From: a virus
Lineage: Duplodnaviria > Heunggongvirae > Uroviricota > Caudoviricetes
DNA length: 6,242 bases
IMG/VR virus record: IMGVR_UViG_2703718819_000019
Reading direction: 5' to 3' (one strand)
Positions 1 through 6,242 of this stretch are shown here, piece after piece; position 1 is the first letter of the stretch; every line of letters begins with the position of its first letter. The notes below the pieces were generated by a model. The model made no database searches and was not told where the DNA came from. It saw only the letters and a list, made by a program, of their open reading frames with translations. The position numbers and the translations under genes were made by a program.

Positions 1-210
1 GCGCTTACGCCAGCCCGCAGGCAGAGCACCAGAAAAATAAAACTCACTGATTACGTCCATGGCAAACGGCTTTAAGCGCAATCCGGCAGCGCCTGTATTT
101 TTCAGTAATGCCCGAAGAATACTGTTGCGTAGCGGTAAAACAGTCTGTTGATATTTGGTGAAATATTTATTTGTCTGCACACGGTCTAATTTGAAATAAA
201 AATATGCCAT
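1..210 (-). CDS. hypothetical protein, N-terminal part only (ORF continues past the window start)
   Basis: Reverse-strand ATG at 208-210 preceded by a purine-rich Shine-Dalgarno-like stretch (AAGGAACAGGA, plus 213-227 reverse-complemented). My manual translation MAYFYFKLDRVQTNKYFTKYQQTVLPLRNSILRALLKNTGAAGLRLKPFAMDVISEFYFSGALPAGWRKR runs 70 codons to the window edge with no stop. Same direction as the upstream operon. Absent from the supplied ORF track because it has no stop inside the window. Confidence 0.4.
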   Translation of the reverse strand, partial: MAYFYFKLDRVQTNKYFTKYQQTVLPLRNSILRALLKNTGAAGLRLKPFAMDVISEFYFSGALPAGWRKR

Positions 211-307
211 ATATCCTGTTCCTTATTTTCAGTTTACAGGCGCAGGCAGTCCCCTGACGCGAGCGCCATAATTAAAACGAAGTGATATTTAATTGATTAA
301 TGCGGTG

Positions 308-838
308 TTATTTATTCAGTCCGGCGTCCTGTTCAAAAGGCTCGACATAAAAACTTTCAGCGCCTTTATTCACCTTGATACCGGCAATGCCTTTCACAGC
401 ATCCGGCTCCGCCAGGACGGCTTCCTTGTTCACTTCCTCTTTCGTGCGGATGAAACGCTCAAGCCCCATACGGCGCAGCATTTCAATCACACCTTCCACA
501 TCACGGCTGACGCTGCATGATGGCGTTCCCAGCCGCCATGACACCGTTCCGGTGGTCAGATTGGCTGTTTTGGTTTTGCCGCCGTTCGTCAGCTCATCAC
601 GGTTGGTTTTGCACCAGTCCTGAATCCCTTTAAAAAGCACTTTGATTTGCTTTTTAAGATTTTCAATCTGCGGCGTATAACGGGCGGTGATTTCTGCCAC
701 TTCGTCATTCATCGCCGTTTCCAGGCGCAGCGCCTCTCGCTGAATATCGCCCAGGGTGCGGATATCGCGGCTGACTTCTTCGCGGGTCTGCGGTGCGGCC
801 TCGGCTACAGCCTTTAATTTTGTAACGCGTTTTGCCAT
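308..838 (-). CDS. gam: Gam-like host-nuclease inhibitor / Ku-like double-strand DNA end-binding protein
   Basis: 176-aa ORF. Segments such as LGDIQREALRLETAMNDEVAEIT, WCKTNRDELTNGGKTKTANLTTGTVSWR and RFIRTKEEVNKEAVLAEP are near-collinear with phage Mu Gam (about 174 aa) as I recall it. Shine-Dalgarno AAGGA lies 8 nt upstream of the ATG (836-838). TAA stop at 308-310. Confidence 0.9.
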   Translation of the reverse strand: MAKRVTKLKAVAEAAPQTREEVSRDIRTLGDIQREALRLETAMNDEVAEITARYTPQIENLKKQIKVLFKGIQDWCKTNRDELTNGGKTKTANLTTGTVSWRLGTPSCSVSRDVEGVIEMLRRMGLERFIRTKEEVNKEAVLAEPDAVKGIAGIKVNKGAESFYVEPFEQDAGLNK

Positions 839-849
839 TTTGTTTTTCC

Positions 850-1143
850 TTATTGCAGTGTGCCTGATGCTTTATGCACGCGGTGGCGTTTAATGATGGC
901 ATCCGCTCCAAAAGACTGTGCAGATGCCTGAAATTCCGCTGAGAGAAACTGAATAATTGCAGGACTGTGATACTGGAGAATACTTGCATAAACGTCACAG
1001 AGTGACGTCGGGCTGTTATCCGTATCACGTTCTGTTTTCACATCCACTCCAATCTTTTCATGCACTTCAACACAGTCATTGCCTGCCAACTTTTCGTCAT
1101 GCGAAACATGATTAAATTCAAAAATAACGCGTACTTTGCTCAT
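850..1143 (-). CDS. small hypothetical protein, paralog 2 of an MSKV..IFEF/Y family
   Basis: The track ORF starts at 1170, but the internal ATG at 1141-1143 (MSKVRVIFEFNHV...) has an upstream AGGGG Shine-Dalgarno-like motif and begins 5 nt after the stop of the preceding ORF. Its N-terminus matches the neighbouring ORF 1148..1420 (MSKVVRIIFEYKEHV) at protein level and about 24 of 27 nt. TAA stop at 850-852. Confidence 0.6.
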   Translation of the reverse strand: MSKVRVIFEFNHVSHDEKLAGNDCVEVHEKIGVDVKTERDTDNSPTSLCDVYASILQYHSPAIIQFLSAEFQASAQSFGADAIIKRHRVHKASGTLQ

Positions 1144-1147
1144 GGAA

Positions 1148-1420
1148 TTACCCCTGCTGATTAAATTCATTACCTTTAATAACCCCGGAACGCATGCTCA
1201 TATCTTTCATGAGCGCACTGGCTTTCATTGCCACAAGTTCAGCAAAGTCTCTGCTTTCCGCGAGCATAACCACCCCAAAAATCATGGCGGGTCCATCACC
1301 TTTCTGCTTTATCCTGGTTGAACGTATGTCCAGACTTACCCCCATGCGCACTGTTCCATCAGGGTTTTTATGGATAACGTGCTCCTTGTATTCGAAAATA
1401 ATGCGTACGACTTTACTCAT
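1148..1420 (-). CDS. small hypothetical protein, paralog 1 of an MSKV..IFEF/Y family
   Basis: 90-aa ORF. ATG at 1418-1420 preceded by GAGGA with a 7-nt spacer. The start overlaps the stop of the upstream ORF as ATGA (1417-1420), indicating translational coupling. Shared N-terminal motif with ORF 850..1143. Confidence 0.6.
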   Translation of the reverse strand: MSKVVRIIFEYKEHVIHKNPDGTVRMGVSLDIRSTRIKQKGDGPAMIFGVVMLAESRDFAELVAMKASALMKDMSMRSGVIKGNEFNQQG

Positions 1421-1698
1421 CCTCTGGTCCTCGTTCTGTTTGGATAACTGACCCGGCGTCTGACCTCACGGCAGAACCGAATCATGGCATTAAAGGCTTC
1501 TTCCTCCGTCACCGCTTCCGGTATCCCCGGAACCAGTAACTGCTCCTGTTCATCACGTCCATGACGCGCCATAACCTCAATCACATGCCGTACCGTGGCA
1601 GGCTTTCCGGCAACTATCGGCAATGCACCTTCCGGCAGGACGTAACCAAACTCAATAAGACCACTCGACCACGCCCATGCAATGAGATTTCGTTTCAC
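1417..1698 (-). CDS. small hypothetical protein (GTG start)
   Basis: 93-aa ORF. The start codon is GTG (reverse complement of 1696-1698), preceded by a strong Shine-Dalgarno GGGAGGTG (plus 1701-1710 reverse-complemented). It lies in the same operon, 1 nt after the stop of the upstream ORF. No recognisable domain by eye. Confidence 0.5.
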   Translation of the reverse strand: MKRNLIAWAWSSGLIEFGYVLPEGALPIVAGKPATVRHVIEVMARHGRDEQEQLLVPGIPEAVTEEEAFNAMIRFCREVRRRVSYPNRTRTRG

Positions 1699-1699
1699 C

Positions 1700-1954
1700 T
1701 CACACCTCCCAGCAAACCGTGCAGCCGCTGATGCGGGTGGCCTTCACACGGCGGCGCAGGCCGTTGGTCTGTATGGTGATTTCAATTTCACCGGTTCCCT
1801 GCACGTTGCCTACCGGCGGCGTGGTTTTCAGTGCAAAACGTTGCGGATAGCGCTTACTGCGTTCCAGTACCGCACCGGCAAGTTCGGTCAGACGGCGCGC
1901 GCTGTTCAGGGAGTCGAATAAATTCATTTTGTTACCGCAGGATTGCATATTCAT
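1700..1954 (-). CDS. small hypothetical protein
   Basis: The track ORF is 1700..1966. I prefer the in-frame ATG at 1952-1954 (MNMQSCGNK...) because GAGGTG sits 6 nt upstream, whereas the ATG at 1966 has no Shine-Dalgarno. The C-terminus carries a CxxC pair (CTVC). TGA stop at 1700-1702. Confidence 0.45.
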   Translation of the reverse strand: MNMQSCGNKMNLFDSLNSARRLTELAGAVLERSKRYPQRFALKTTPPVGNVQGTGEIEITIQTNGLRRRVKATRISGCTVCWEV

Positions 1955-1966
1955 ATAACACCTCAT

Positions 1967-2194
1967 TTAGCTGACTTGTTTCGCACCAACAGAACGGCAT
2001 ATTCCGCTGTAAACGTCTGTCGCACCTTCGCGATCAAGTCCGGCAGATATCACCATTCGTGTGCGGTCATTAAATTCAAAAAGTAAATCGCCACATTCTT
2101 TATTTTCGGCCAGTGAAATCACCTTCACGTTATCGAAATTAACCAGGTAAAAGCGTCCGTAAATATCAGGAATATTAAATACCGCCATAATCAC
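1967..2194 (-). CDS. small hypothetical protein in the position occupied by kil in phage Mu (immediately downstream of B)
   Basis: 75-aa ORF whose ATG overlaps the B stop as ATGA (2191-2194). It contains an internal LLFEFNDRTRMV segment related to the N-termini of ORFs 850..1143 and 1148..1420, and shares an identical 14-nt string with the former (2069-2082 vs 1111-1124). The Kil analogy is positional only; I cannot verify sequence similarity. Confidence 0.5.
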   Translation of the reverse strand: MIMAVFNIPDIYGRFYLVNFDNVKVISLAENKECGDLLFEFNDRTRMVISAGLDREGATDVYSGICRSVGAKQVS

Positions 2195-3123
2195 ACCTGT
2201 GAGAGTAATTCAGGGTTGGTATAAACCTCTTTAAAGGCCGCATTAATATGTTTTTCTGTCAGCGCCGCGCCTTCACCGCTGGCGGTGAGCCACGCCTGGT
2301 TAAGCGTATGTGTCAGAACGCGTAACGCTCCCGGCTTTTCAGCGATAGCCTGCATGACGGCCAGCTCGGCCTCACCACTGATCTCCCACGCCCTGGCAAT
2401 GGCCAGCACATCCGCCTTTTTGGCCTTGCGAAGTTGTTTTGTACGGGCAAGACGGCTGAACAGGCGCGATAAATCATCAAAGGCGCGGCGTCCACCTTTA
2501 AACAATCCGCGCGGGTTACCAATAAGCACCATCCCGATCCCCGTGGCGTCCTGAATTGCCCGGAGTTGCTCCAGACCGTCAATACCAAGATGATCCGCCT
2601 CATCCACAATCACCAGTCCACGCGTTCCCATCAGGCGACGGCGGATGGCGCGGGATAATGCCCCTTTGTTCGCGCGGGTGTAATCAATCCCCAGCGCATC
2701 GGCCAGCTCCAGCAGACACTCCGTGACGCTGGAGTGCGCGGGTGACAGGGTGATCATCCAGGTGTTTGGTTGCTCCTGGCAGTAATTACGGGCAGTGGCC
2801 GTTTTACCCACACCCGGTACGCCCACAATAACGTTAATACAGCCCATCAGACGAACCGCCTGAAACAGTGCGCGCAGCTCCTGGACTGTCTGCGTTTCCA
2901 CAAACTGCGGCGGTTCCGGCAGTGCGCTTTGTTTATTCCAGTTCTCATACCAGGAACGCAGGGAAGCAGCCACAGCAGCGTTATCGCCTTTATATTTTCC
3001 CTTACGGAAAGCCGATAATGTGCCGTCGGAAATTCCCGCCTCTCTGGCGATGGCATACTGCGTCAGTACGCCGCCATCAATAAGTTCATCAATGGTCTTG
3101 ATTACATCGTTAATATCAGTCAT
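2191..3123 (-). CDS. B: MuB-like AAA+ ATPase, transposition target-DNA activator
   Basis: 310-aa ORF. N-terminal HTH-like region (LTQYAIAREAGISDGTLSAF), Walker A GVPGVGKT, Walker B LVIVDEADHL, and overall collinearity with phage Mu B (312 aa) as recalled, including the PEPPQFVETQTV and KKADV..IA.AW segments. Shine-Dalgarno GAGAGG 8 nt upstream of the ATG at 3121-3123. Confidence 0.92.
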   Translation of the reverse strand: MTDINDVIKTIDELIDGGVLTQYAIAREAGISDGTLSAFRKGKYKGDNAAVAASLRSWYENWNKQSALPEPPQFVETQTVQELRALFQAVRLMGCINVIVGVPGVGKTATARNYCQEQPNTWMITLSPAHSSVTECLLELADALGIDYTRANKGALSRAIRRRLMGTRGLVIVDEADHLGIDGLEQLRAIQDATGIGMVLIGNPRGLFKGGRRAFDDLSRLFSRLARTKQLRKAKKADVLAIARAWEISGEAELAVMQAIAEKPGALRVLTHTLNQAWLTASGEGAALTEKHINAAFKEVYTNPELLSQV

Positions 3124-3194
3124 ATTATTAACCTCTCATTTGATACCTTGTTTAATCAAATAACCTGAGTCGCCGCTCGGGTTATTTTTTTATT

Positions 3195-5303
3195 TCAGGC
3201 CAGCGGGTCATTTTCTTTTAATTTCGCTTCCAGCAACTGCAATCCCCGCTGGAAATTACGCTCGTATTCTTCATCAGGTTCATCGTCAGCGACCGGTTGC
3301 TGAACGGTCACCGTATTACCCACAGGGCGGTATATGTTTTCCAGCCAGGGCCCCTGTGGCTTGTGCTCCAGCACGTTGACAACCTCATCCTCGGCATCAC
3401 GGATTTTTTCCTCTGCGCGTTTACGCATGCCTTTAAGGCGCTGCTGCTGTTTATGGTATTCCGCGCTGACCGGGAAGGCTTCGCGTTTATTGCCGTCCCA
3501 TACCGCCTCGCAAATCACACTGCCATCCAGGCGACGCACGGTAATTCGCTCAGCATCATGAATGTCATAGCTGATAAGCACCTTACGACCATGCTCGTCA
3601 CGCAGCTCGGGCGCGTAGTAAATATTATTCAGCCAGCGTATTTCACAGCGTCTTACAGGGCGCTCCACCATCGGCCGGAACATATCCCGCAGCTCAACAT
3701 CGGACAGCCATTCAATTTCCGTGTCCTCTTCTGCCAGGCGTTTTTTTCTGAACTCCGCCGGGCTGTAATGCTTCCCGTTCGGCTTCATGGGTAATTCATC
3801 GTGCGGCCGGTTGTTGTACCACTCAACACCATCACGAATGGCATCAATCAGTTCAGACCAGGACGGTAAATCACGCATCGCTGACTGCTGCCGGGCGTTC
3901 AGCCGCTTGCCCTGTTGCAGGGCAGTGAATGCCGAGCGTAAATCGCGGTTGGTTTTGCGTAACGTCTCGCGATCTGCACCTTTCCCGAAATAGGTGCGGT
4001 ATCTGCGGGCTATGCGCATCGGTAATGTGCGGTTAAGCCGTTCGATAATGCCCCGTCCCTGCGGATTACCGGCAATCCCGGTCGGGTGATTAATCCCCAG
4101 TCGCGGTAGTATCCCCACAATCTCCTTATCCAGGATGTCGGCGGTTTCCCCGGAGCCATTATCCGAGTAATACAGAAACGGTTTGCCGTGATGGCGAATG
4201 CCGTGCTGTATAGCACCGGCTACGGCGAAAACATTTTCAGCCAGGTCAAGGCTCCAGCCCACCACAAAGCGTGTACCGCCATCGATAACAAAGGTTACTT
4301 CCGGTGCAAATGGCCGCCCGTGAACCGGGTGCCTGCATTTCAGCTTCATGCCGTGACCGTCACCAATCCAGACATAGTTCACCGGCATTCTGGACCAGTC
4401 GCGGCGCGTGAATCCCTCAAGCTGGCGGTATTCACTGCCGGTCACCCGGCCTTTTTGTTTCACCACTTCCGGCAGTTTCTTCATTGCGCGGCGAATGGTG
4501 TCATAAGACGGCATGATATCGAGCATATAAGGCTCATCAGCGTGCCGGTGCTGCCATTCAGCGACAAAATCCTCGTAAGCCTCGGTCATTGGTCGGCCGT
4601 TTGACTGGCGATACTGCGCCAGAAATTCGGGCAGCCAGTTAATATCTTCGGCTTTTATTTCCTGGCGCTTACCCGGTGCCAGTAAAAGCAGGCGTTCAGC
4701 GGCGTTCTGCGCCTTGTTAAAGGCCGCAATCCAGCGTTTCAGCGTGATTTCACTTAACGCGCGGCTGTTTCCCTTTTTGGCGTTCGCCGTCTCAACCATT
4801 GCCACAATGCGCTCGTCCAGCTGCGAACGTGCCAGGTTGTCAACGATAAACCGGATAGCCTTCGCACAGCTGAAACCAGGTTGTTGCGCGACTTTCAGAA
4901 CTTCGCTGACGATCGCGATTCGTGCATCAGCCACCTGGCGCTGGTTTTCAGTCAGGGCATTGAGGCGTTCGACCATCAGTTGTGGTGATCCGCGATATGC
5001 CTCCACCGCATCAACCACGGCAGGTGAGCGTCTGGCCTTTGTCACCACCGGAGCCGGTGATTCATCGGCTTTTTGCGTCATCAGTTGCAGGGCGTAGCGT
5101 TCACGTACTGCCTGCTGAACAGTTAAAGGCAAAGCACCTATTTCACACTCTAAAACTTTCCCTTTTACCCCTGGTTTTAGCCGCGTTTTCCACGCCTCCC
5201 TCTTTGCTTTTTTGTGCAGACCTGCCAAAGAACTAGGTAGGTCACTGAATGAAATCAATTCAGTCATTGCAACCCACATATTTCCTCCGCGCACGTCGTT
5301 CAT
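3195..5303 (-). CDS. A: MuA-like DDE transposase
   Basis: 702-aa ORF. N-terminal winged-helix-like motif DLPSSLAGLHKKAKREAWKTR (the enhancer/operator-binding domain in MuA). Central DDE candidates in WIGDGHG, YYSDNGSGE and GRGIIERLNRT. Size and position match Mu A. The true start is probably the ATG at 5277-5279 (MWVAMTEL...), which has GGAGGA immediately upstream; the track start at 5303 has no Shine-Dalgarno. TGA stop at 3195-3197. Confidence 0.93.
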   Translation of the reverse strand: MNDVRGGNMWVAMTELISFSDLPSSLAGLHKKAKREAWKTRLKPGVKGKVLECEIGALPLTVQQAVRERYALQLMTQKADESPAPVVTKARRSPAVVDAVEAYRGSPQLMVERLNALTENQRQVADARIAIVSEVLKVAQQPGFSCAKAIRFIVDNLARSQLDERIVAMVETANAKKGNSRALSEITLKRWIAAFNKAQNAAERLLLLAPGKRQEIKAEDINWLPEFLAQYRQSNGRPMTEAYEDFVAEWQHRHADEPYMLDIMPSYDTIRRAMKKLPEVVKQKGRVTGSEYRQLEGFTRRDWSRMPVNYVWIGDGHGMKLKCRHPVHGRPFAPEVTFVIDGGTRFVVGWSLDLAENVFAVAGAIQHGIRHHGKPFLYYSDNGSGETADILDKEIVGILPRLGINHPTGIAGNPQGRGIIERLNRTLPMRIARRYRTYFGKGADRETLRKTNRDLRSAFTALQQGKRLNARQQSAMRDLPSWSELIDAIRDGVEWYNNRPHDELPMKPNGKHYSPAEFRKKRLAEEDTEIEWLSDVELRDMFRPMVERPVRRCEIRWLNNIYYAPELRDEHGRKVLISYDIHDAERITVRRLDGSVICEAVWDGNKREAFPVSAEYHKQQQRLKGMRKRAEEKIRDAEDEVVNVLEHKPQGPWLENIYRPVGNTVTVQQPVADDEPDEEYERNFQRGLQLLEAKLKENDPLA

Positions 5304-5505
5304 ATCTAGTAGGCCAAATAACTTGCGGCTCTACACCTATAGCCCTAGCAATAATCTTTTCACCTTTAGGGTAGGGAACTCGCAAAGCATTACCCAAAGT
5401 CCTAGGCTGCAAATTATTTTCCCTTGATAAACGTGACAAATTGGTATCGCGTTTTTCTAAGGCTGCCTTTATATCGGCGGAAGACCAATCTTCAATAAGA
5501 CTCAC
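5260..5505 (-). CDS. ner: Ner-like DNA-binding transcriptional regulator (Ner/Nlp family)
   Basis: 81-aa ORF. The PYPKGEKIIARAIGVEPQVIWPTRY segment matches the conserved core of Mu Ner and E. coli Nlp (..WPKGE.IIA.ALG..P..IWPSRY). GTG start at 5503-5505 preceded by AGGGGG with a 5-nt spacer. It is the first gene of the early operon and its 3' end overlaps the 5' end of A. Confidence 0.85.
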   Translation of the reverse strand: MSLIEDWSSADIKAALEKRDTNLSRLSRENNLQPRTLGNALRVPYPKGEKIIARAIGVEPQVIWPTRYERRARRKYVGCND

Positions 5506-5540
5506 AATGGCCCCCTGTGTACTTTCTATGGCAAACTTTA

Positions 5541-5579
5541 TTACTCATGTGTGCTACTCTATTGAGTTACTCACTAGTG
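5541..5579. repeat. three tandem 13-bp direct repeats (TTACTCATGTGTG / CTACTCTATTGAG / TTACTCACTAGTG), candidate operator or iteron-like sites
   Basis: Read directly from the sequence: the TACTC core recurs at 5542, 5555 and 5568, an exact 13-bp phase, and 8 of 13 positions are invariant (yTACTCwnnnGnG). A fourth TTACTC lies at 5644-5649. Confidence 0.5.
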
Positions 5580-5589
5580 TATGTTTGAT

Positions 5590-5618
5590 ATATTAGATAT
5601 TAACTAAGTAAATATCAA
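5590..5618 (-). promoter_or_regulatory. candidate early promoter (Pe-like) for the ner-A-B operon
   Basis: On the minus strand, -35 TTGATA (plus 5613-5618), a 17-nt spacer and -10 TAATAT (plus 5590-5595), about 80 nt upstream of the ner GTG. The -35 hexamer overlaps the IHF consensus match, so the two assignments compete. Confidence 0.35.
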
Positions 5619-5625
5619 CCGGTTA
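5613..5625 (+). promoter_or_regulatory. candidate IHF binding site
   Basis: TATCAACCGGTTA matches the IHF core consensus WATCAANNNNTTR at every defined position, with an AT-rich tract immediately 5'. In Mu, IHF binds within the operator region and stimulates Pe (established knowledge). Confidence 0.4.
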
Positions 5626-5735
5626 ATTTCAAATTCCTTAGATTTACTCGATATCTATTTGTTTTATATTAGATTATTTTTGAAATAAACCACAGAAGAG
5701 ATATGAACAAAAGTTAATATCAAATGGAGTTTGAT

Positions 5736-6242
5736 ATGATCCTTGACCAAGAATGGATCCTTGCCAGTGACTTGTTGGGGGTTGGAGGTCTTCCTTCATC
5801 TCTGGCTGGGCTTCATAAACGAGCAAAAAATGAAGGATGGGAAAAACGTTCGGTAACTACACCCGGTATCAGAGGGAGAGCATTTGCCTACCGTTTAAGC
5901 GACTTACCTGCACATGTAGTTTCCATCATTACAGGTAGTGCAGAAATAAAACACCAAGCCCCTAAAAAGAACGGTGGCAATAGCGAGTTGCTCGAACTCA
6001 TCGACACCTTGAACCAAGAAGAGCAAGAATTAGTTATTTACACCTTGAGAAGGAAAGGGGTAGAAAAATTGCTGGAATTCTGCAATCAAGAGAATCAAGA
6101 GCTGATCGCTTTAACAGGTATTCGACGCCTGGCAGCATTGAGCCTCAATAATTTATCAGATCAAAAGGTTAGAGAGATTTTCGAGGGAGATGAAACCAAG
6201 GATCATCATTTCAATCTAACCCATAAAGAAGCCAAAGCGTAA
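5736..6242 (+). CDS. c: Mu repressor c-like protein (Rep/CI of transposable phages)
   Basis: The track ORF is 5724..6242. GGAG at 5726-5729 sits 6 nt before the ATG at 5736, so 5736 is the more likely start. The N-terminal motif GLPSSLAGLHKRAKNEGWEKR parallels the transposase N-terminus (DLPSSLAGLHKKAKREAWKTR), the known Mu Rep/MuA shared DNA-binding domain. Divergent orientation from ner. TAA stop at 6240-6242. Confidence 0.8.
   Translation: MILDQEWILASDLLGVGGLPSSLAGLHKRAKNEGWEKRSVTTPGIRGRAFAYRLSDLPAHVVSIITGSAEIKHQAPKKNGGNSELLELIDTLNQEEQELVIYTLRRKGVEKLLEFCNQENQELIALTGIRRLAALSLNNLSDQKVREIFEGDETKDHHFNLTHKEAKA

Follow-up and report, generated by a model that had tools for sequence, protein, structure and literature searches.

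Does the abrupt fall in G+C at the right end of this DNA mark an immunity cassette that was exchanged between Mu-like phages, and, if so, where does the cassette end and does it travel as one piece? An earlier note on the same window (by which we mean the whole stretch of 6,242 nucleotides analysed) had read the fall as a sign that the repressor gene c, the operators, ner and the 5′ end of the transposase gene A had been exchanged as a unit.

The early region of a Mu-like prophage

In the best explanation, the window is part of an Escherichia coli prophage that is transposable, Mu-like and Sp18-like, and shows its early (left) end in reverse orientation. Along it lie gam, six small ORFs, B, A, ner, a control region and c, and the ORF map, the Pfam matches and the RefSeq annotation of 98%-identical prophages give the order c (divergent), control region, ner, A, B, which matches the early gene order of Mu and D108. 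Pfam matches were obtained to Phage_Mu_Gam, Phage-MuB_C with AAA_22, Mu-transpos_C, HTH_Tnp_Mu_1 (in both A and c) and HTH_35. By Pfam, A has the DDE transposase, the Mu-transposase C-terminal and the N-terminal Mu DNA-binding domains of a Mu-like early region (PF09299, E=1.5e-17, and PF02316, E=3e-8, both above the gathering score; the rve matches in A were weak and below the Pfam cut-offs). Directly downstream of A is a MuB-type AAA+ target-DNA activator (PF09077 Phage-MuB_C, E=6.7e-25, with AAA_22), and farther downstream is Gam (PF07352 Phage_Mu_Gam, E=5.6e-42). The left ends of seven loci had seven different neighbours (prpD, comEC, citrate lyase, flgL, elyC, an ABC permease and the interior of another prophage), and such a distinct insertion site in each genome examined is expected for transposition rather than for site-specific integration. 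The backbone occupies up to four places per genome. Two prophages of EHEC, Sp18 of O157:H7 Sakai and Phi804-3 of FRIK804, have the same backbone as the window; both are presented as transposable Mu-like prophages at strain-specific sites in PMC7430833, where the parts dealing with these two prophages do not discuss a mosaic of the immunity region.

Ner, the Cro-like negative regulator of early transcription, is encoded on the minus strand at 5260..5505 (PF13693 HTH_35, E=6.7e-27) and is 53-56% identical to the Ner proteins of Mu and D108; its gene overlaps the start of A by 20 nt. We place the start of A at 5279, which has GGAGG 5-6 nt upstream and gives the MWV start conserved in relatives; RefSeq, too, calls this start in a prophage with 98% identity. 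The repressor c (168 aa; 5736..6242, plus strand) begins at a conserved ATG at 5736 with GGAG upstream, the same start as in relatives and in RefSeq, and these features make the ATG at 5724 taken by the ORF finder the less likely start.

Base composition and the homology break inside A

The hand counts of G+C in the earlier note were reproduced, both in the backbone (0.55 in 2401-2460, 0.583 in 4201-4260 and in 5041-5100) and in the cassette (0.417 in 5101-5160 and 5221-5280, 0.433 in 5341-5400, 0.43 in 5801-6100 and 0.217 in the operator block 5581-5640). Overall, G+C falls from about 0.55 in the bodies of A and B (0.551 and 0.553) to 0.40 in 5118-6242, where it is 0.432 in the N-terminal 162 nt of A, 0.435 in ner, 0.28 in the intergenic region and 0.43 in c. 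Blocks of 60 nt had a mean of 0.519 in the backbone (n=85) vs 0.404 in the cassette (n=18; Mann-Whitney p=3e-6), and over 3195-6242 the maximum-likelihood single change-point came after 5117 (log-likelihood ratio 31.6; 0.551 vs 0.402). Segmentation of the whole window gave a single split, at 5226, and further patches of low G+C were seen at 121-300, 901-1440, 1921-2280 and 3061-3240. Within the A ORF alone the step was not significant (LLR 3.7, matched by 145 of 500 codon shuffles), so the break inside A is placed by the comparison with homologs and not by composition alone.

In this comparison, the megablast matches of more than 190 genomes stop exactly at 5117. The Mu-like prophage of FRIK804, which adjoins prpD, is 98% identical to the window over 1-5117 but differs in having an immunity cassette of type IIa: identity is 97.9% in the A body (3195-5117) and 99.4% in B, whereas the N-terminus of A, ner (44.9% for its DNA), the intergenic region and c, at 38-49%, are effectively unalignable. 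Around 5117, a few bases suffice for identity to fall from about 98% to about 40%, as a cliff and not along a gradient. Thus the break does lie inside A, as the earlier note had claimed, and its proposal to look for loss of identity along A and to compare c-ner among prophages with near-identical A and B led to the result that it anticipated; its estimate of about 65 codons holds less well, the count being 62 from an ATG at 5303 and 54 from the better-supported start at 5279. In full-length alignment, prophages with 98%-identical A bodies do not share 5118-6242; had they done so, exchange would have been refuted.

The recombination junction (5115..5120) has its last shared base at 5117, where the G+C change-point also falls, and separates A codons 54 and 55 (...LPLTV, then QQAVRERYALQ...); with the type III cassette it lies 12 nt deeper in the A body. 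On the other side, the exchanged block runs about 190 bp past the right end of the window, up to conserved left-end sequences, and the other crossover boundary very probably lies just inside these sequences. Positions 5118-6242 and these additional 190 bp are thus very probably an immunity and early-control module that was recombined onto a backbone circulating with several alternatives. Exchange of modules of this kind is already known in principle from the design of Mu and D108.

Regulatory DNA and the 5′ ends of genes are usually rich in AT, and one could attribute the G+C drop to this alone, its coincidence with the homology break being incidental. This explanation is correct in that composition alone is no proof of exchange, and several observations agree with it: the same step is found with all cassette types, in Mu and D108, and in the distant relatives L010, L013 and L015, which are not discordant; G+C reaches its minimum (0.22-0.28) in promoter and operator DNA; and the step within A alone is not significant. 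We nevertheless consider it improbable. The low G+C extends over 1.1 kb and two complete genes, and at third positions it is 0.37 in the N-terminus of A, 0.34 in ner and 0.40 in c vs 0.60 in the A body, which argues against a 5′-end gradient and against a drop caused solely by amino-acid composition or by promoters. Moreover, the change-point coincides to the base with the homology break, and the comparative data, by which the mosaicism is real, would be left unaccounted for. Since the step is present in every relative examined, it is a family trait that cannot serve as evidence of exchange, and low G+C belongs permanently to this class of modules rather than being a signature of recent import; it may reflect, for example, nucleoid-protein binding or a separate gene pool. 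Hence the exchange that the earlier note deduced from the G+C break stands on the homolog comparison, while the deduction from G+C itself is weak.

Very fast evolution of the cassette in place, driven by diversifying selection for immunity, could also separate it from its counterparts while the rest of the phage stayed conserved. Such selection is expected on immunity regions, and it is the control region that varies most between two subtypes of the window's cassette (92% identity vs 98-99% in the flanking genes). Yet the cliff in identity has no gradient, and the N-termini of the repressors belong to different fold families (PF02316 winged helix vs CI-type HTH, PF07022/PF01381), which point divergence is incapable of producing. 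Cassettes also recur unchanged (at least 97-99% identical) on backbones at different chromosomal sites. Finally, the relationships of cassettes and backbones are discordant: where the A bodies are 98% identical, the prophages have cassettes that cannot be aligned, and the nearest relatives of the window's cassette (amino-acid identity of 67-72% in the N-terminus of A, 77-81% in ner and 55-77% in c) are in E. coli and Salmonella prophages with A bodies that are merely 74-79% identical. We therefore give divergence in place hardly any credence, and favor the exchange of modules, as the earlier note did for the repressor, operators, ner and N-terminus of A.

The exchanged DNA-binding domain and the control region

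Codons 1-54 of A (5118..5279, minus strand), which belong to the exchanged cassette, encode the recognition part of a Mu I-alpha-type winged-helix domain; in MuA, a domain of this type binds the enhancer/operator. Residues 1-59 match MuA I-alpha (1TNS; Pfam PF02316), and the N-terminus matches MuA residues 3-62 in PDB 1TNS/1TNT (E=2.9e-5) and also the Mu repressor 1G4D. It is 42% identical over 55 aa to the N-terminus of the window's own c (E=6e-15), in agreement with the kinship of exchanged domain and repressor put forward in the earlier note, and only about 26% identical, ahead of the junction, to the N-terminus of type II A. The similarity of A to its own repressor stops at the junction, which is within the MuA I-alpha fold: residue 54 of A aligns to about residue 57 of the 76-residue MuA domain. 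The rest of the protein, residues 55-694 (3195..5117, minus strand), comprises domains I-beta/gamma, the DDE core and the Mu-transposase C-terminal domain, is part of the conserved backbone and, as judged from the alignments, lies outside the exchanged block. In c, residues 6-63 form a Mu-repressor-type winged-helix DNA-binding domain (Pfam PF02316) that matches the Mu repressor in PDB 1G4D/1QPM (E=4e-5) and 1TNS. The C-terminal 90 aa are a conserved Mu-repressor-like domain with 40% identity to the FRIK804 repressor, and the N-termini of the two repressors are unrelated. The likeness of the DNA-binding domains of A and c to 1TNS/1TNT and 1G4D/1QPM is one of sequence, at about 30-35% identity, and their DNA sites differ.

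The divergent control region (5506..5735) contains Pe toward ner-A-B, Pc toward c and candidate operators; the promoter-like sites, at 5618-5590 (minus) and 5643-5670 (plus), are matches to the consensus only. The region has blocks that are conserved across type-I relatives whose proteins share just 57-81% identity. On its ner-proximal side, the sequence contains two adjacent small palindromes, GAGTTACTC and CACTAGTG (5564..5579), and GAGTTACTCA is invariant in five loci of the type-I family. In types II and IV, the palindromes at the corresponding place near ner belong to the portion common to cassettes that differ in c, and we infer that the palindromes at 5564..5579 are a candidate Ner site.

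The motif GTTAATATCAAA occurs in two clusters of three 12-nt copies. Cluster 1 (5593..5633; 5593-5604 minus, 5608-5619 plus and 5622-5633 plus) overlaps the Pe-like −10 and −35 elements, and cluster 2 (5679..5741; 5679-5690 minus, 5713-5724 plus and 5730-5741 minus) lies downstream of the Pc-like −10 and spans the start codon of c. Seven matches with at most two mismatches are found in the window vs 0.59 expected, six of them within 5593-5741; in 5506-5760 six were observed vs 0.13 in local dinucleotide shuffles, none of 1000 reaching six, an enrichment that is descriptive because the motif was derived from the region tested. The six copies lie within 150 bp and are kept in relatives, and the other cassettes each have their own, different repeats. 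These copies are candidate binding sites for the repressor and for A I-alpha. The IHF core consensus WATCAANNNNTTR is matched exactly only once in the window, by TATCAACCGGTTA at 5613..5625 (plus). This candidate IHF site lies between the promoter-like sites and next to cluster 1, or inside it; 45 of 200 shuffles had at least one such match somewhere in the window. The two clusters of three and the one exact IHF-core match are conserved in relatives and are, at the level of motifs, a candidate counterpart of the arrangement in Mu. Mu has an IHF site between its two operator/enhancer clusters, its enhancer overlaps O1-O3, and MuA domain I contacts this enhancer (PMC3145075).

By analogy with Mu, c would bind the GTTAATATCAAA copies and thereby shut off Pe and regulate its own gene, and the I-alpha domain of A would bind overlapping sites as the transposition enhancer. 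With shared sites of this kind, both domains and the sites would have to move together. Different cassettes would then confer different immunity and permit polylysogeny.

Alternative cassettes on one backbone

The A/B backbone was found in 245 complete E. coli genomes. These gave 247 matching records, 228 of them with an identity of at least 95% in the A body, and just 13 of the genomes have the window's cassette. The other modules on this backbone are IIa (90 genomes), the type II A N-terminus and ner with another c (about 105), type III (36), IVa (4) and partial variants; altogether the backbone carries at least four alternative A N-terminus/ner modules and at least six repressor genes. Cassettes with a c identity between 66% and 98% were not found. 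The repressors of types II-IV have a helix-turn-helix N-terminus, with CI-type Pfam matches above threshold for types III and IVa and only below it for IVb, and no similarity of these repressors to the N-terminus of A was found. Homology between the N-termini of repressor and transposase, present in the window's cassette, is accordingly absent from its sister IIa, and matching of the two domains is no requirement of the system.

Is the cassette a unit? All 13 genomes with the window's cassette match the whole of 5118-6242, and for these copies the unit stated in the earlier note holds. In the sister cassettes it is divisible: IIa and IIb, like IVa and IVb, are 97-100% identical from the N-terminus of A across ner and for about 65 bp into the control region, and 30-65% identical through the remaining control region and c, so that c and the distal operators recombine apart from ner and the N-terminus of A. 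This second boundary, about 65 bp upstream of ner, and the existence of partial matches to types III and IV would fit an origin of the window's cassette by two exchanges as well, one of c with the distal operators and one of ner with the N-terminus of A and the Pe-proximal DNA. The complete matches in 13 of 13 genomes speak against it, as do L010, L013 and L015, which keep the linked set with similar divergence in the N-terminus of A, ner and c. The c/A N-terminal homology, restricted to the window's cassette family, provides in addition a functional reason for linkage. Two exchanges are on balance unlikely, though less so than the other alternatives above, and we prefer a single module for the window's cassette.

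For the family as a whole, we tentatively raise the idea, on balance rather doubtful, that the I-alpha domain travels with ner and the 65 bp nearest to Pe, apart from the repressor and its operators, the arrangement of Mu being one of several solutions. Where a Mu-type I-alpha domain is combined with an unrelated HTH repressor, as in most cassettes, and if an enhancer is still needed, the I-alpha sites would not be operators of a repressor with a homologous domain. If this is true, the competition of repressor and transposase for shared sites through homologous domains, which is textbook knowledge for Mu, would not be universal, the window's cassette would be a rare keeper of the Mu arrangement (13 of 245 genomes), and a library of interchangeable modules would let up to 3-4 such prophages coexist per Shiga-toxigenic E. 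coli genome. The sister cassettes are natural chimeras that bear on whether enhancer recognition and repression need a shared site.

Mu and D108 provide the closest precedent. Our re-alignment gave about 40% identity over nt ~330-1525, which hold c, ner and the first part of A, and an identity of 100% starting at about codon 67-70 of A. As here, near-identical backbones flank a non-homologous block that runs from c through the operators and ner into the beginning of A, its G+C is below that of the A body, identity resumes in the last I-alpha helix (about MuA residue 57 in the window, codon ~67-70 in Mu/D108), and the N-termini of repressor and transposase are homologous in each phage, as they are in our own comparison for the window. 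The homology is already in the title of Mizuuchi et al. (1986), and this work of Mizuuchi, Weisberg and Mizuuchi on the Mu/D108 pattern appears in the reference list of PMC3820752. The window differs in belonging to a distinct lineage (A body about 25% identical to MuA, c 24-32% and ner 53-56%), in a backbone that occurs with at least four A N-terminus/ner modules and at least six c genes, vs two, and in having a second breakpoint and mostly alternative repressors of the HTH (CI-type) class instead of the Mu winged helix.

Lambdoid phages exchange repressor-operator-cro modules (imm434, imm21 and others) to give heteroimmune relatives, and they resemble the present case in that a regulatory module is swapped between otherwise homologous temperate phages. 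Lambdoid imm regions are not known to include part of a replication or recombination enzyme in such a manner. [quoted passage not shown]

The rule drawn from Mu and D108, by which the DNA-reading, N-terminal part of the transposase belongs to the immunity module, thus extends to a distantly related Mu-like lineage, common among E. coli strains both Shiga-toxigenic and other, and it operates at the population scale, with many cassettes on one backbone. For annotation, this means that the first ~54 codons of A follow the immunity type and not the transposase lineage, and that low G+C in the module, as a family trait, should not be read as recent import. The many cassettes would also explain how several nearly identical transposable prophages can coexist in a genome, where they provide long repeats for genome rearrangement. 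Different cassettes reside together in Z869 (I and III), STEC2018-553 and 98E11 (I and IIb), and JE86-ST05 (IIb, III and a IV-like cassette), and from these polylysogens we infer that the cassettes are heteroimmune. Strain 48 has two places that match the window's cassette.

An exchanged block with a homology junction inside A

The ORF map, Pfam and the RefSeq annotation of 98%-identical prophages concur in identifying the window as a Mu-like transposable prophage's early end in reverse orientation. The genes gam (308-838; ORF map, Pfam and RefSeq), B (2191-3123; MuB_C and AAA domains), A (3195-5279; Mu-transposase C domain and Mu DNA-binding domain) and ner (5260-5505; HTH_35) are on the minus strand, with six small ORFs from the ORF map between gam and B. 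A 230-bp AT-rich control region separates ner from the repressor gene c (5736-6242, plus strand; Mu DNA-binding domain). Judging by the upstream GGAG and the MI(L/Q/H)... start kept in relatives, c most likely begins at ATG 5736, and A, with an upstream GGAGG and an MWV start likewise kept, most likely at ATG 5279; the ORF-finder starts of c (5724-5738) and A (5279-5303) are probably too far upstream.

The whole window served as a megablast query for 5,426 complete genomes of E. coli. The backbone, i.e., the phage DNA outside the cassette of c, operators, ner and A codons 1-54, was found in 245 genomes, and in most of them the match stops exactly at 5117, as it does in two deposited Stx phages with an inserted Mu-like phage. 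This backbone type is that of Mu-like prophages of enterohaemorrhagic E. coli. One of these, Phi804-3, which adjoins prpD and is described as a Mu-like prophage of enterohaemorrhagic E. coli FRIK804 (PMC7430833), is 98% identical to window 1-5117. The seven loci inspected have seven different chromosomal neighbours, which fits the expectation for a transposing phage.

The earlier note had proposed that c, the operators, ner and the 5′ end of A were exchanged as a module between Mu-like phages, and the homology comparisons support this reading. DNA identity to FRIK804 is 97.9% over 1-2190, 99.4% in B and 97.9% in the A body, whereas it is 39.9% in the A N-terminus, 44.9% in ner, 38.7% in the control region and 37.6-48.9% in c; identity along A is thus not uniform, and in this alignment it drops within a few bases. 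The c-ner region indeed differs among prophages with near-identical A and B bodies, the window's cassette being present in 13 genomes and the backbone in 245. The A proteins of all cassette types converge at ...QQA(V/L)RERYALQLMTQK. A mis-called start or a frameshift could in principle give differing A N-termini, but we rejected this explanation, as every type has an intact ORF with its own start. Identity among cassette types is regained only over the final ~110-160 bp at the left end of the prophage, ~190 bp past the window, so the exchanged block is about 1.3 kb, of which 1,125 bp are in the window. Within the A body, 4400-4900 is 100% identical to the FRIK804 type II prophage and 3300-4300 is 94-97% identical; by these identities the backbone next to the junction itself seems to be pieced together from tracts of recent exchange.

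A contig scan with one genome per species for close relatives of c gave none that could be confirmed, and c relatives were obtained through the protein database, followed by their contigs. The nearest relatives of the window's cassette (type I) are in E. coli, Shigella and Salmonella, with c at 55-77% amino acid identity. In the three loci inspected, one from E. coli and two from Salmonella, identity to the window is 67-72% for the A N-terminus, 77-81% for ner and only 74-79% for the A body, while prophages with 98%-identical A bodies have cassettes that cannot be aligned to the window's. These discordant relationships of cassette and A body, together with the different N-terminal families of the repressors, support recombination, and not divergence in place, as the source of the cassette differences. 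No close copy of the type I cassette was found in deposited phage genomes, where the best matches were the D108, SfMu and PhiR68_1 repressors (26-31% identity). A Salmonella contig (L014:4027-5013) has a type-I-like c and ner followed by a ~2 kb uncalled gap and then Mu-like head genes at the position expected for A and B; this prophage may be deleted or rearranged.

A Mu/D108 mosaic of this kind was reportedly the subject of work by Mizuuchi, Weisberg and Mizuuchi in 1986. We re-derived the comparison by aligning the deposited genomes in the same way as the window: Mu and D108 share about 40% identity between nt ~330 and ~1525, rising to 100% at about A codon 67-70 and beyond, the same mosaic picture as that of the window and its backbone relatives. 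SfMu is a Mu-like genome with a D108-type module (PMC4406740). The window's module is a new instance of the design known from Mu and D108.

Cassette types and their divisibility

Besides type I, the same backbone carries type IIa (FRIK804; 90 genomes), type IIb (about 105 genomes), which has an A N-terminus and ner identical to those of IIa and a different c, type III (36 genomes), with its junction 12 nt deeper in the A body, and types IVa and IVb, as well as further partial variants. Within each of the pairs IIa/IIb and IVa/IVb, identity is 97-100% from the A N-terminus through ner to about 65 bp into the control region, and 30-65% across the remaining control region and c. This places a breakpoint inside the module, which parts ner, the A N-terminus and the DNA proximal to the early promoter Pe from c and its operators. 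The claim that the cassette moved as a unit thus holds for type I, which is full-length in all 13 genomes carrying it, none of them having a split form, but not for the sister cassettes IIa/IIb and IVa/IVb, which are divisible.

This second recombination boundary lies ~65 bp upstream of ner (L001:8536-8600 versus L003:3237-3300, type II; L006:3217-3260 versus L007, type IV). The stretch shared up to it carries a cassette-specific palindrome, TTACCCGCGCGGATATTCG/CGGATATCTGTACGGGTAA in type II and AAGTTACGAAATTTGATAAC.../...GTTATCAAGTTTAGTA in type IV, which is probably the Ner site. The c-proximal repeats of IIa (AACAAACAAAAGAAC) and IIb (AAAATACCAAA) are not alike. Between the type I subtypes (window 5506-5723 versus L002:8507-8735) the control region is 92% and the flanking genes are 98-99% identical, and the substitutions are concentrated around 5630-5700, between and beside copies of the operator motif treated below. 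The start of A is overlapped by ner over 20 nt in the window's cassette and in its relatives L010 and L015, and over 16 nt in L013, whereas a gap of 1-2 nt lies between ner and A in types II and IV and one of 58 nt in type III; the ner-A junction thus varies among cassettes.

Base composition across the junction

On recount, the G+C values that the earlier note had given for 60-nt blocks were correct within about 5 points. G+C is 0.551 in the A body and 0.553 in B, and 0.432 in the first 162 nt of A, 0.435 in ner, 0.28 in the control region and 0.43 in c; at third codon positions it is 0.60 in the A body and 0.34-0.40 in the cassette genes. The best single change-point in 3195-6242 comes after base 5117 (log-likelihood ratio 31.6). 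In the A ORF alone the step was not significant (145/500 codon shuffles reach the same), and when the whole window was segmented recursively a single split came out, at 5226, since other patches of low G+C weaken the contrast on the left. The compositional break is therefore real, but its position inside A rests on homology. Further patches of low G+C (0.33-0.48) are at 121-300, 901-1440, 1921-2280 and 3061-3240, within the small early ORFs and where A and B adjoin; a Pfam search of the small early ORFs gave no match, and identity to relatives dips only slightly, to 94-96%, around 600-1000.

The step recurs in all cassette types (A N-terminus 0.43-0.49, A body 0.54-0.55) and in L010, L013 and L015, distant lineages whose cassette and backbone diverge equally from the window. 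Mu and D108 have it too, with 0.41-0.47 in c, ner and the first 180 nt of A and 0.51 in the rest of A. Low G+C is a standing property of the module class that marks the boundary and is not evidence of recent import; the step itself does not prove exchange, though the exchange reading is supported. The AT-richness of the module class may reflect nucleoid-protein binding or a separate gene pool.

DNA-binding domains, immunity and candidate sites

Residues 1-59 of A match the I-alpha domain of MuA, whose structure is solved (1TNS), and residues 6-63 of c match the Mu repressor DNA-binding domain (1G4D). In the type I cassette the two N-termini share 42% identity over 55 residues (E=6e-15), and the junction, A residue 54, is where this similarity stops. 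In Mu, transposase domain I contacts the enhancer, whose two clusters flank an IHF site and which coincides in part with operators O1-O3 of the repressor (PMC3145075; PMC5977238). By inference, the DNA-binding domains of A and c and their shared sites would form a co-adapted set. The repressor N-terminus is a Mu winged helix in type I and a CI-type helix-turn-helix in types III and IVa (PF07022/PF01381 above threshold); in IIa, IIb and IVb it is helix-turn-helix-like by sub-threshold Pfam hits or sequence similarity alone. Every one of them continues into a homologous C-terminal domain (40% identity, 90 aa), and the alternative repressors are domain chimeras (L001:8703-9287, L003:3427-3957, L005:3420-4031, L006:3393-3947, L007:3401-3946). 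In the alternative cassettes the A N-terminus has no similarity to its own repressor, though A keeps a Mu I-alpha-type N-terminus. In these sister cassettes the I-alpha domain of A moves together with ner and apart from the repressor, which in most of them is of an unrelated, helix-turn-helix type.

Some single genomes harbour two or three prophages that share this backbone and differ in cassette: JE86-ST05 has IIb, III and a IV-like cassette, Z869 has I and III, STEC2018-553 and 98E11 have I and IIb, and Show KS 470-1 has IIa and III. No genome among those matched has two type III copies. These polylysogens lend indirect support to the idea that different cassettes would confer different immunity. 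In E. coli strain 48 (NZ_CP166879.1) four places match the window and two match the type I cassette, one copy being inserted within the tail/head genes of another prophage.

The candidate operator motif GTTAATATCAAA, which was derived from the same control region in which it was tested, has six copies (at most 2 mismatches) in 5593-5741, where 0.13 are expected in local shuffles. The copies fall on a Pe-like promoter, in the c leader and across the start codon of c, and they sit in blocks kept in relatives with protein identity down to 57-81%. A single extra match at 3109-3120 was taken as chance. The one IHF-core match in the whole window, at 5613-5625, is a candidate site. The control regions of the other cassettes have repeats that are different in each. 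Past the window, the conserved prophage left end (L001:9380-9540, L002:9430-9541) has repeated (A/G)GTATCAAA motifs and an inverted repeat, ATCACCTG...CAGGTGAT, which are presumably the sites where the transposase binds the phage end; the core of the operator motif, ATATCAAA, is similar to these left-end motifs.
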